A DNA stretch of 64,000 bases from a virus, in IMG/VR virus record IMGVR_UViG_3300042516_002090, positions 2,578 to 66,577 of that record, one strand, 5' to 3'. Below, piece after piece: positions 4,686 to 57,101 of this stretch. Each line of letters begins with the position of its first letter. Position 1 is the stretch's first letter. A program made the translations under genes and the position numbers. The notes under the pieces were generated by a model. That model saw nothing but the letters and a program-made list of their open reading frames with translations, did not search any database and was not told where the DNA came from.

Positions 4686-4714
4686 TTGATACCATTGAAG
4701 TTACACTATATTTG
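4686..4714 (+). promoter_or_regulatory. Bacteroidota-type promoter
   Basis: TTG(4686)-N18-TATATTTG(4707-4714), 8 nt before ATG 4723. Confidence 0.65.
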
Positions 4715-54052: not shown

Positions 54053-54244
54053 ATGTTTATCCTCTCAATTGTCTTAACTGTTGTATCTATCTATCTGATG
54101 ATCAAGAACTCCATATATGGCTGTGGCAAAAGATGTTACAAGACCCGAAAGGAGGCTCAGGATCATTGTGATCAGGACCAACAAGTGTTCATGTGTTGGG
54201 ACTGCGAAAAGTGGCACATAAAAAATAATGAAGAAAATACTTGA
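54053..54244 (+). CDS. small membrane-anchored Zn-finger protein
   Basis: N-terminal TM; CGKRCY and CWDCEKWH. Confidence 0.7.
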   Translation: MFILSIVLTVVSIYLMIKNSIYGCGKRCYKTRKEAQDHCDQDQQVFMCWDCEKWHIKNNEENT

Positions 54245-54276
54245 CAGCCACGCGTGTTTGTTTTATGTTTGTCAAA

Positions 54277-54386
54277 ATATTTCACCCCTCGTTTGCTACG
54301 AACCACAGTAAACTAGGGTTGGAAGCTAAGTAAAAACTTACTTATCAACCTAAAAGCTCGCAAAGTGGTTCTTGCGAGCTTTTTTT
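54277..54386 (+). ncRNA. kissing-loop leader RNA B of replication operon
   Basis: TTG-N20-TATGTTTG promoter; hairpin loop ACGAACCAC; UAAGUAA/UUACUUA hairpin; terminator loop AGUGGUUC and U7. Confidence 0.8.
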
Positions 54387-54391
54387 ATCTT

Positions 54392-55114
54392 ATGCACAAT
54401 CAATATTCAATCATCCCTGCAAGTGTGCTGCTTAGTAAGGAATTGTCATCTACTGAGAAATTGCTCATAGGTGTCATATCAAATCTATCAAACATCAAAG
54501 GTTATTGTTTCGCTTCAAACCATTACCTGGGTGAGTGCCTTGGTATATCCAAGCATAGTGTTCGTCGGGTTATTTCCGATCTAGAACAGAAGGGTGTTCT
54601 AGGGAGAATAGTTAAACTCAACAGTCGAAATGAAGTTGAGGTAAGGTGTTTAACAATAAATCCAGACGCTGATATTTTGAGTAGAACGGTCACCCCTGAA
54701 ATACCAATATCTGAAAATGAGGAAGATGAATTTTTTGATCATACCCCTGCTCAAAAACCTGCATACCCCCTGCTCAAAAATGAGCATACCCCTGCTCAGG
54801 AATGCTCACATAATAAAAAGAATAAAGTAAAAGAAGAAAGTAAGTATTCTTTCGAGCAGTTTTGGTTGATGTATGACAAGAAGGTGGATAAGAAACAAAC
54901 CCTTGCTGTTTGGAATAAACTATCTGCTGAGGACCGAACCCTAGCAGTTGAAGGCATGGGAAACCATAAAAGTGGGCGCGAGCGCAAATACTGGAAGGAC
55001 CCGATACGATATCTTCGCGACAGAAGGTGGGAAGACGAAACAACGAATACGAATACAAATACAAAACAAACTAACTACAATTATGACCCAAATGACCCAA
55101 GGAATAAATGGTAA
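54392..55114 (+). CDS. replication initiator (HTH, lambda O-like)
   Basis: LSSTEKLL...GYCFASNHYLGE HTH; FEQFWLMYDKK...P.RYL...RWEDE C-domain. Confidence 0.85.
   Translation: MHNQYSIIPASVLLSKELSSTEKLLIGVISNLSNIKGYCFASNHYLGECLGISKHSVRRVISDLEQKGVLGRIVKLNSRNEVEVRCLTINPDADILSRTVTPEIPISENEEDEFFDHTPAQKPAYPLLKNEHTPAQECSHNKKNKVKEESKYSFEQFWLMYDKKVDKKQTLAVWNKLSAEDRTLAVEGMGNHKSGRERKYWKDPIRYLRDRRWEDETTNTNTNTKQTNYNYDPNDPRNKW
54740..54808 (+). repeat. iterons (putative replication origin)
   Basis: CATACCCC(C)TGCTCA at 54740, 54762, 54785, followed by A-rich tract. Confidence 0.8.
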
Positions 55115-57029
55115 GGTATCCATCTACAAAGACTTCAATGACCTGCAAGGACACACGATTAGTGTACTGGGCGCACTTGAACGAATTAGGACTGGAAAAT
55201 CAAAGGCACTTGTTGAGAAGGCGAGGGAAGCCAAGACCAAGAAAGAGGCGGACGAATTAAAAAAGAAACTCCCCGCAGTTTGTTTCAGTGGAACTTTTTC
55301 CAAAAGGAAAGACTCTGAGCTGCTCGAACACTCCGGATACATCGTGTTGGACTTCGATAACGTGTCAGATATGGCCCAAAAACGAAGCGAATTGTGTTCG
55401 ATGAGGTATATTACCGCTGTTTGGGAATCACCCTCAGGAAAAGGCTTAAAAGCGCTCGTCCAAATAGAGTGGAAAACCAAGCATAAGGAACACTTTGACG
55501 CTTTGATGGAAGAAATGCCCGACATTGACAAGACCGGTCGCAATGTTTCTCGCCTGTGCTTTGAGTCGTATGATACCAATCTTTGGTACAACGAGAACGC
55601 TGAAGTGTACACAAAGCTTCCTGTAAAAAAGGAAGATAGGAGGTTGCCCCAACAGACAACTACCGAGACTATTAACGACGACGACAAGATATTTCAAAAT
55701 CTTCTTGCGTGGATGACATCTAAGGGTGATGCGTTCCGTGAAGGCGAAAGGAACCACTTTGTATTCAAGTTAGCTGCGAGTTGCTGCCGCTTTGGGATGA
55801 TGGAGGAAACTTGCTACAGCTTAATGATGATGCACGTTACTCCAAACTCTAGCTTCAGTCAAAAGGAATGCAGGCAAGCCATCCGTAGTGCTTACCGGGC
55901 CAACATGAATCAGTGGAATACTGCTGAGTTCACTAAAGACCAACTGGTTACAAAGAGTAACCACAAGGAGGTAGAGATCGTAATCACCGCAGAAGATGCG
56001 GAGAATATCGCCGCAGAAGATGTCATTTATGCTGAAGAAGTGTTTGAGCAGGCATCTGAGATTTACCACAAGGGCTATCAGGCAGCAATGCCGCTTGGCG
56101 TTCCGCTCCTAGACAAACACTTCAAAAGAGTTAAAGGCGAATTAACAATTGTTTCCGGAATCGGAAACTATGGTAAGTCTTCGTTTATGAAGTGGGAGAT
56201 GATATTCCGCATGGTCAAGTTTGGGGAGAAGGTTGCCATATTTACTCCCGAGGAATTGCCCGCTGAGCAGTTCTATCATGACCTAGTCGAGATTTACTTT
56301 GGAAAGGACTGCACACCCAACAATTACCACAGACCGAGTTACGAGTCTTACAAGAAGGTGTATGATATGATTGGACAACACATCTTCATGGTGTATCCAA
56401 AGAACGTAAGCCCGACTCCTGACTATGTCAAGGAAGTCTTCCTAAGCATGATCATCAAGCATGGAGTAGACCGAGTAGTAATCGACCCGTTCAACCAAAT
56501 GGCAAACGACTACAGCAAGGGCGGTGGTCGCAGCGACAAGTACCTTGAGACATTTCTATCCGACTGCACAAGGTTTGCAAGAAAAAACAACGTGTACTTC
56601 GATATTGTGGTCCACCCGCACAAGATGAGAAAAGGAGACGACGGCAACTACCCATGCCCGGAGGTGTTTGACCTTGCCGATGGGGCGATGTGGAACAACA
56701 AGGCTGACAACATCATCATTTACCATCGTCCTGTCGCTCAGACAGCCCCCGAAAGTCCACTGTGTGAGTTTCACTCCAAGAAGATCCGTAGACAGAAGAT
56801 AGTGGGGATAAAGGGCTTCTTTGACTTTGAACTCGTAAGGTCTACTCGCAGGTTCACGTTCGAGGGCGTCGATTACCTTCAACAGGCGATCGAGGGTAAG
56901 TATGTGCAAGCTGAAATTAAACAGCCAGCCGCGATAAAGCCGAACAAGAGTTGGACTGATTCGAAAGAGGCAAAGGAATGGAACGAGGAGCCAGGACACC
57001 CGAACGGGTATAAAGAGGCTTGGGAGTAA
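55083..57029 (+). CDS. primase-helicase (BT4734/VirE-N + PriCT + SF4 helicase)
   Basis: KKKLPAVCFSG, IVLDFD, SPSGKGLK, EGERN, SGIGNYGKS, VVIDPFN, VVHPHK. Confidence 0.9.
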   Translation: MTQMTQGINGKVSIYKDFNDLQGHTISVLGALERIRTGKSKALVEKAREAKTKKEADELKKKLPAVCFSGTFSKRKDSELLEHSGYIVLDFDNVSDMAQKRSELCSMRYITAVWESPSGKGLKALVQIEWKTKHKEHFDALMEEMPDIDKTGRNVSRLCFESYDTNLWYNENAEVYTKLPVKKEDRRLPQQTTTETINDDDKIFQNLLAWMTSKGDAFREGERNHFVFKLAASCCRFGMMEETCYSLMMMHVTPNSSFSQKECRQAIRSAYRANMNQWNTAEFTKDQLVTKSNHKEVEIVITAEDAENIAAEDVIYAEEVFEQASEIYHKGYQAAMPLGVPLLDKHFKRVKGELTIVSGIGNYGKSSFMKWEMIFRMVKFGEKVAIFTPEELPAEQFYHDLVEIYFGKDCTPNNYHRPSYESYKKVYDMIGQHIFMVYPKNVSPTPDYVKEVFLSMIIKHGVDRVVIDPFNQMANDYSKGGGRSDKYLETFLSDCTRFARKNNVYFDIVVHPHKMRKGDDGNYPCPEVFDLADGAMWNNKADNIIIYHRPVAQTAPESPLCEFHSKKIRRQKIVGIKGFFDFELVRSTRRFTFEGVDYLQQAIEGKYVQAEIKQPAAIKPNKSWTDSKEAKEWNEEPGHPNGYKEAWE

Positions 57030-57070: not shown

Positions 57071-57101
57071 TTGCACAAAAGAAACATATATGCTAGATTT
57101 G
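57071..57101 (+). promoter_or_regulatory. Bacteroidota-type promoter for SSB
   Basis: TTG-N20-TAGATTTG. Confidence 0.7.

Follow-up and report, generated by a model that had tools for sequence, protein, structure and literature searches.

The systems that lie closest in biology to the RNA described here are the CI RNA of satellite phage P4, the c4 RNA of phages P1 and P7, and the repZ leader pseudoknot of plasmid ColIb-P9. CI (with seqB complementary to seqA and seqC) and c4 are short RNAs made from the leader of the operon that they control and are complementary to their own transcript. They regulate replication or antirepressor genes through premature termination, and a few compensatory bases separate one specificity type from another. 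RNase P processes these RNAs, which belong to temperate enterobacterial elements; they are built to act in trans and work through Rho-dependent termination or a translation block. In ColIb-P9 (IncI-alpha/IncB), intramolecular pairing of a loop with a distal site in the leader sets the level of Rep and a competing antisense Inc RNA reverses this effect; pT181 and pIP501 use countertranscript attenuation. We examined a leader RNA of about 110 nucleotides (nt) that directly precedes the replication initiator gene of a phage, in a 64-kb stretch of DNA (the window) taken from the complete 66.6-kb IMG/VR virus record IMGVR_UViG_3300042516_002090. The apical loop of the first hairpin of this RNA is complementary to the loop of its intrinsic terminator. 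Our preferred reading, to which we assign a probability of roughly 60%, is that the leader belongs to an uncatalogued family of cis-acting attenuator RNAs of Flavobacteria-type phages, in which the loop-loop (kissing) interaction hinders closure of the terminator and allows read-through.

Pairing between the loops of two hairpins is known from other RNAs as well. The cobalamin riboswitch has an aptamer-side loop that kisses the loop of an expression-platform hairpin (L5-L13), and the phi29 pRNA, of ~120 nt, carries on one molecule two complementary loops that covary among relatives and through which a ring is formed. For the guanidine-IV riboswitch, the excerpted account in PMC11611296 describes a kiss on the loop of the terminator hairpin that hinders completion of the terminator stem, and elongation of that stem shortens the linker and sterically disfavours the kiss.

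Structure and conservation of the leader RNA

By minimum free energy (MFE) folding the plus strand forms three hairpins, P1, P2 and P3, whose coordinates are collected in Table 1. The fold energy is -36.3 kcal/mol compared with -19.2 +/- 3.0 kcal/mol for shuffled sequences (z = -5.64), and none of 200 shuffles was as good. P3 has the form of an intrinsic terminator, with 12 base pairs (bp), five of them G-C, an 8-nt loop and a following U7, and its stem covaries. The kissing 7-mer GTGGTTC occupies positions 54365-54371 within the P3 loop (L3), and its complement lies in the P1 loop (L1). P1 (~18 bp), P2 and P3 (12 bp) follow closely on one another, separated by 0-7 unpaired bases. The many G-U pairs would become A-C on the complementary strand, so it is the plus-strand RNA that folds. 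The covariance model found no second copy in the window; the leader itself scores 128.7 bits, and the other matches were one of 13.3 bits (E = 1.4) and two, of 23.3 and 19.7 bits, that mirror the leader on the reverse strand.

Homologues were gathered by several routes. A search with the initiator protein returned 59 viral loci, and blastn found the RNA 5' of 47 of them; six further loci (L013-L018) share one diverged version that the covariance model scored at 40.4 bits. Scanning with a pattern that left L3 unconstrained gave 75 viral loci, 59 with the element and 16 unrelated, and the covariance model rejected all 12 of the unrelated loci that were tested. A stricter pattern contributed 27 metagenome loci. 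The final set held 54 distinct sequences, and the pattern used for this count fixed the L3 flanks GT..TC and left L1 free. In all 54 (and in 37 of 37 in an earlier set), L1 ends in seven bases that complement L3 exactly, and the scan with unconstrained L3 likewise gave perfect complementarity in 59 of 59 true members.

On a model-based alignment of 55 sequences, 99.2% of the cells of the kiss are paired, the only exceptions being those of L017, whose own kiss is out of register in the alignment. Three of the seven kiss pairs have changed on both sides, in 25, 1 and 26 sequences. Both-sided changes were also found at 10 of 15 counted pairs in P1 (97.7% of cells paired) and at five of 10 in P3; for P1, P3 and the kiss together the figures are 18 of 32 counted pairs and 98.3% of cells, against 37-49% when the partners were slid by 1-3 columns. 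Covariation thus shows the kissing loop, and the sequence comparison confirms as real and conserved the GAACCAC/GUGGUUC pairing that a first-pass annotation of this DNA had proposed from the letters of the window. Its geometry is canonical: seven pairs form, the spare bases of each loop are confined to its 5' side, and the pairing never reaches into the stems. The three-hairpin MFE fold recurs in 53 of the 54 distinct homologues, P2 taking about 20 different sequences, and a U-rich tract stands 3' of P3 in every one.

The leader retains 83-88% nucleotide identity where the initiator protein is only 43-48% identical, and its upper P1 stem and loop flanks hardly vary among relatives. Across loci L002-L055, the same leader was seen 5' of initiators that have three different N-terminal domains and a shared C-terminal domain; constancy of the leader across these types indicates that the replication module is mosaic. 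A leader peptide was considered and rejected: there is no ATG in 54276-54391, and the GTG at 54365 sits in L3, in a frame that is not conserved because the length of the U tract varies between relatives.

Loop types and their switching

Three loop types occur among the 54 distinct sequences, namely type 1, GAACCAC/GUGGUUC (25 sequences, central triplet ACC), type 2, GAGCAAC/GUUGCUC (28, GCA), and type 3, GAGUCAC/GUGACUC (1, GUC), and no mismatched combination was found among them. To follow the switching, a tree was built from the RNA minus L1 and P3, which leaves 76 columns and limited resolution. Loop type changes eight times on this tree (four to five times if only well-supported branches are counted), compared with 18.7 times on average for shuffled labels. 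The RNA of the window (L001, type 1) differs from that of L019 (type 2) almost only in L1 (three bases) and P3 (six bases). Over 834 nt, L127 (type 3) shares 97.6% identity with L175 (type 2); four of the 19 mismatches between them make up two compensatory loop pairs where, by our arithmetic, the 14 kissing positions would be expected to hold ~0.3 mismatches. The type of the loops does not depend on which of the three N-terminal domain types the initiator has.

The predicted duplex energy lies between -9.0 and -9.3 kcal/mol in five of the seven 7-bp versions, a range that holds 6.6% of all 7-mers, and cross-type loop combinations reach -3.4 kcal/mol or weaker. Three orthogonal loop types and repeated switching support the view that the pairing behaves as a specificity determinant. 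No third site that covaries with loop type was found within 3 kb; GAACCAC/GTGGTTC sites at 55751, 57151 and 57354 are unchanged across types. The window holds 15 copies of the 7-mers against 7.9 expected, an excess that is marginal at most and was reached by one of 100 shuffles.

Analogous leaders in other phages

Leaders of the same design precede replication genes in further phages, each with a TAnnTTTG promoter box on the 5' side and, on the 3' side, either the initiator gene or a small open reading frame (ORF) followed by the initiator (Table 1). The elemoA and elemoE leaders of cultured, lytic Flavobacterium phages are 74% identical to each other and lie between a transfer RNA (tRNA) gene on the 5' side and a small ORF and replication initiator on the 3' side. 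Phages elemoA-D and elemoE-F share one isolation host strain and differ in their loop pairs. The next ATG follows the U-rich tract by ~20-25 nt in L056, L057 and the elemo phages. The loop readings of these leaders were made partly by eye, and few sequences stand behind the divergent families. The covariance model does not recognise the leaders of L056, L057 or the elemo phages, whose likeness to the leader of the window is one of design, taken by eye and from the folds. Chance alone readily produces one 7-mer match in a long loop, as 85-112 of 500 shuffles did in a wide search; the weight lies in the apical-loop position of both 7-mers and in the paired changes between homologous leaders.

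We rejected the idea that the element is a general feature of this initiator family: among 24 initiators distantly related to that of L057 in their N-terminal part, 21 lack a terminator in the 110 nt nearest the start, one of the other three is the family itself, and the remaining two have a complement no better than the shuffles. Maribacter phage Panino has a terminator 5' of a small-ORF and initiator pair and, by eye, no clear loop complement, and L060 showed no element in the 200 nt inspected. The region had no blastn match among cultured phages, in which the closest initiator relatives are at most ~39% identical, and ~31% over long matches.

Promoter, RNA ends and dependence on read-through

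The predicted leader promoter consists of TTGACA (54241-54246), a 17-nt spacer and TATGTT (54264-54269), matching the consensus at 10 of 12 positions. The bases of TATGTT are also part of a Bacteroidota sigmaA -7 box (TAnnTTTG), which ends 16-20 nt 5' of upper P1 in 52 of 53 homologues. As excerpted from PMC9723704, the flavobacterial -7 box spans -12 to -5, which places the predicted start at 54276 and therefore the predicted length of the terminated RNA at about 108-111 nt. Consensus scans by themselves are weak evidence: within 5 kb they gave 11 promoter-like sites against 7.6 expected and eight terminator-like sites against 4.3 expected. The promoter, the ~110-nt RNA, the 12-bp terminator, the U tract to 54386 and the initiator ATG at 54392 all lie where the first-pass annotation had put them.

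The palindrome-like promoter spacer (54244-54261) is a perfect ACAACC-N6-GGTTGT in most relatives and the degenerate ACAGCC..GTTTGT in the window. In the alignment of relatives it is better conserved than the leader RNA itself, and it may be an operator for some regulator.

The initiator ATG (54392-54394) starts 5 nt after the end of the U tract, and the corresponding distance is 0-6 nt from the U-rich tract in all 54 distinct homologues. On the plus strand, no sigma-70-like site was found between 54269 and 54392 and no TAnnTTTG from 54271 up to the next box at 57094, which agrees with the earlier claim that no other consensus promoter intervenes. The primase-helicase gene starts at ATG 55083 or 55092, inside the 3' end of the initiator gene, so that the two genes would be co-transcribed. 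With no promoter before 57094, their expression should require read-through of P3. We infer that this is the only route to both proteins, and the overlap of the genes and the missing promoter lend support to the read-through requirement as first proposed.

Table 1. Coordinates of the leader RNA and adjoining genes in the window, with the kissing 7-mers or 6-mers of analogous leaders
Feature	Positions	Strand	Description
Upstream gene, 63-aa protein	54053..54244	+	ORF; hydrophobic N-terminal helix, Cys-rich C-terminal half
Leader promoter	54241..54271	+	TTGACA 54241-54246 (contains -33 TTG) and -7 box TATGTTTG 54264-54271
Leader (terminated RNA, ~110 nt)	54276..54386	+	predicted start to end of U tract
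P1, long hairpin	54280..54324	+	loop L1 54298-54306 = ACGAACCAC, 9 nt; kissing 7-mer GAACCAC 54300-54306
P2, short spacer hairpin	54327..54344	+	from the fold; sequence variable
P3, intrinsic terminator	54352..54386	+	stem 54352-54363/54372-54383; loop L3 54364-54371 = AGUGGUUC; U tract 54380-54386
Replication initiator gene	54392..55114	+	HTH_36 N-terminal domain; phrog_270
Primase-helicase gene	55083..57029	+	BT4734-like N domain, PriCT_1, phrog_18375
Leader of L017			L1 GUAAGGC; terminator loop GCCUUAC
Leader of L057			L1 GUAGGAG; terminator loop CUCCUAC
Leader of L056 (homologous to L057)			L1 AUGCAG; terminator loop CUGCAU
Leader of Flavobacterium phage elemoE	L186 2246-2353		L1 GUGGAGG; terminator loop CCUCCAC
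Leader of Flavobacterium phage elemoA	L189 447-565		L1 UGAGAGC; terminator loop GCUCUCA

Comparison with described systems

The leader resembles CI and c4 in that L1 and L3 reside on one leader and fall into three orthogonal, compensatory types. It is unlike them in that pairing takes place with an intrinsic terminator's loop inside the same 110-nt RNA and in that the PHROG matches of the phage include no lysogeny genes; in Rfam, the C4 antisense RNA family gave no match at the gathering score or at E up to 10. ColIb-P9, pT181 and pIP501 use antisense RNA from the opposite strand, for which the leader has no conserved counterpart: no more than 15 of 53 homologues have a minus-strand TAnnTTTG within 260 nt downstream, and it lies where the coding sequence is constrained, which makes a conserved countertranscript unlikely, and countertranscript attenuation was rejected on this ground. 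The cobalamin riboswitch has a large ligand-binding aptamer and mostly translational control, whereas the leader comprises three simple hairpins. The loops of the phi29 pRNA pair between molecules through four bases and serve the packaging motor of terminal-protein phages, unlike the present leader, which adjoins an initiator gene in a phage with a standard terminase. Membership in the phi29-type pRNAs was rejected because there is no Rfam match and because the phage has the usual large terminase and portal.

In probable mode of action, the guanidine-IV expression platform is the closest known match. As excerpted from PMC11611296, the guanidine-IV riboswitch (mepA motif) also has an upstream hairpin loop that kisses the loop of an intrinsic terminator, and there the kiss competes with the elongated stem across a short linker. 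The kiss that defines such a platform is present in the leader, with seven pairs in 54 of 54 sequences and three pairs changed on both sides. The two differ in that guanidine-IV has conserved loop bases and a guanidine-dependent kiss and controls guanidine export or detoxification genes, whereas the central loop bases of the leader vary, unrelated 6-7-mers take their place in other families, and a replication initiator lies downstream. With central bases that change freely, the leader has no fixed ligand pocket. Given variable loops, a replication gene downstream and no match to the family model among the 15 that Rfam returned up to E = 10, membership in guanidine-IV was rejected.

Those 15 matches were all sub-threshold and terminator-like, and nothing in the window reached the Rfam gathering score; six related loci gave one tRNA and nothing else. 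No description of such a leader was found in the literature searched. We rate the leader as a new RNA family, probably of the kissing-loop attenuator type, and as a member of none of the known systems compared.

Proposed mechanism and alternative explanations

Under the attenuator reading, host RNA polymerase would start at ~54276 and transcribe P1, P2 and the terminator hairpin P3. L1 would capture L3 once L3 leaves the polymerase, and L3 would reach L1 while the 5' arm of P3 is still single-stranded. Hardly any single-stranded linker separates the three hairpins, so that the kiss and complete zipping of P3 should be difficult to accommodate sterically at the same time, and a coaxial P1-kiss-P3 stack would not be closable by so short a tether once P3 had zipped completely. 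The kiss would then delay or hinder closure of the base of the terminator and let a set fraction of polymerases read through. It would act as a kinetic antiterminator, the strength of the pairing (about -9 kcal/mol in most versions) fixing this fraction, and blocking of L1 or L3, by a protein or by accumulated RNA copies with a closed P3, would restore termination. On this analysis the kiss probably gates termination and hence read-through into the initiator and primase-helicase genes.

Several points weigh against this reading. P3 alone is a strong hairpin with 12 pairs and U7 and needs no helper. The sign of the effect of the kiss may go either way; the kiss could equally promote termination or be unrelated to it. 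Termination efficiency is a prediction, as are the promoter, the start site and the 3' end of the RNA, and the steric argument is a qualitative hand estimate from helix lengths. Because the loops of guanidine-IV are conserved and hold the ligand whereas those of the leader vary freely, the analogy covers the expression platform only. The narrow range of kiss energies is a post hoc observation, and the seven values include three with flanking bases in common. For the analogous leaders, the single-sequence fold of elemoE is weak (z = -1.97) and the MFE folds of L057 and elemoE draw P1 otherwise than the homology reading does.

The loop types also bear on possible action in trans. The terminated RNA might accumulate and, through its L3 or L1, kiss nascent leaders of the same type, on copies of its own genome or on the genomes of co-infecting relatives, and alter their termination, thereby providing dosage control or incompatibility. 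We consider this type-specific riboregulation unlikely on balance, though it is compatible with the cis model. In its favour, the three orthogonal types have equal duplex energy and cross-type pairings of -3.4 kcal/mol or weaker, and types 1 and 2 occur at similar frequency (25 and 28 of 54) on the same backbones with at least eight switches. The differences between the L001 and L019 RNAs are almost confined to L1 and P3, the four loop-base changes between L127 and L175 in 97.6%-identical DNA look like selection for a new specificity, and elemoA-D and elemoE-F carry different loop pairs in one host strain. Trans-acting RNAs derived from attenuators also have a precedent in rnTrpL (as excerpted from PMC7968998). 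Set against this, the cis partner is always nearer than the trans partner, compensatory switching and recombination could arise from a purely cis constraint, the PHROG matches revealed no lysogeny module, and no third type-covarying site occurs within 3 kb, the other GTGGTTC/GAACCAC sites being the same in type-2 genomes. Orthogonal types and repeated switching fit trans action without proving it. A doubtful but more specific version joins both modes in a self-antisense regulator, in which the cis kiss would hold the terminator open and accumulated terminated RNAs, their P3 closed and their loops released, would kiss nascent leaders in trans and restore termination. If true, this would be a protein-free, dosage-sensing shut-off of the replication genes, and the 7-base code would sort co-infecting phages into orthogonal incompatibility types. 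One phage lineage already has three isoenergetic types in circulation, and other codes are found in sister lineages that include the cultured elemo phages. The first-pass annotation had framed the loop interaction as a possible switch between lytic and carrier states, with the RNA as a possible immunity factor, a framing for which we found no support: no integrase or repressor family appeared among the PHROG matches to the 65 ORFs of the window, and the pattern scan found the element in none of the genomes of 185,579 bacterial species.

It is improbable that the kiss merely compacts an RNA with another job, such as a protein-binding or sponge RNA or a pRNA-like multimer joined through L1 and L3, with P3 a plain terminator. 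Two complementary loops on one molecule, as in the phi29 pRNA, would suit such a role, the near invariance of the upper P1 stem and loop flanks would be expected of a protein-binding site, and the RNA is far better conserved (83-88% nucleotide identity) than the initiator protein (43-48%). In every family found, however, the element lies directly 5' of the initiator or of a small ORF and then the initiator, a placement that argues for leader function; a canonical large terminase and portal leave no need for a pRNA, of which Rfam found no match. We give very little credence to the 7-mers being DNA sites, either a protein-bound inverted repeat or single-stranded DNA hairpins at the origin. They do form an inverted repeat on DNA, the replication module adjoins with iterons 350 nt downstream, and operator half-sites can also covary with specificity. 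This explanation is countered by the exact placement of the 7-mers in the apical loops of covarying hairpins that have many G-U pairs on the plus strand only, by a 7-mer spacing of 58 to 71 nt that is not phase-constant, by the independence of loop type from the N-terminal type of the initiator, and by the promoter box 5' and U tract 3' of the element in all families.

To our knowledge, gene regulation in phages of Bacteroidota is almost unstudied. If the kiss gates the terminator, the leader would be a ligand-free, natural kissing-loop attenuator that controls the first step of DNA replication in such phages. The orthogonal, isoenergetic 7-bp codes on near-identical backbones amount to a ready-made experiment on RNA specificity, and are a possible basis of incompatibility between co-infecting phages. 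Because elemoA and elemoE have the same design and are cultured phages of a single host strain, Flavobacterium sp. BAL314, the mechanism can be tested directly. The leader family could also join RNA family databases and aid the annotation of replication modules and early promoters in metagenomic phages.

Genome context and additional observations

Genes running leftward from ~54 kb encode terminase, portal and tail functions, and those running rightward from 54 kb encode replication and nucleotide metabolism. By PHROG matches, the large terminase and portal are of the usual kind. The host is probably a member of Flavobacteriia: the 85 records of portal relatives among cultured phages comprise 68 from Flavobacterium, 15 from Cellulophaga, one from Maribacter and one unnamed, and the primase relatives give the same picture. 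No Shine-Dalgarno sequence was found before the initiator ATG, which fits the phylum Bacteroidota as far as the excerpted account in PMC6847099 goes. TAnnTTTG boxes stand directly 5' of many gene starts in the window, 5-20 nt ahead of the start codon, for example at 4707, 7478, 18173(-), 49273(-), 53981(-), 54041, 58841, 59290 and 60940. This suggests that many transcripts of the window are short-leadered or leaderless, and against this background the 115-nt structured leader stands out.

The stop codon of the gene for the 63-aa protein overlaps the -33 element of the leader promoter. This protein has no Pfam or PHROG family match and is strongly conserved in the fetched loci (69 tblastn matches, 34 distinct, highly similar versions); its Cys-rich tail reads GCGKRC...HCD...MCWDCE.WH. 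Within the initiator gene, three direct repeats of 22-23 nt (CCCCTGCTCAAAAA...) at 54744-54811 on the plus strand are probably origin iterons. Further downstream, the start of a 210-aa gene (57135) and the 15 nt 5' of it retain 92-100% DNA identity across nearly all relatives (81% in L018), compared with ~80% for neighbouring sequence, and the plus-strand segment 57120-57190 may be a conserved nucleic-acid element or encode a very constrained N-terminus.

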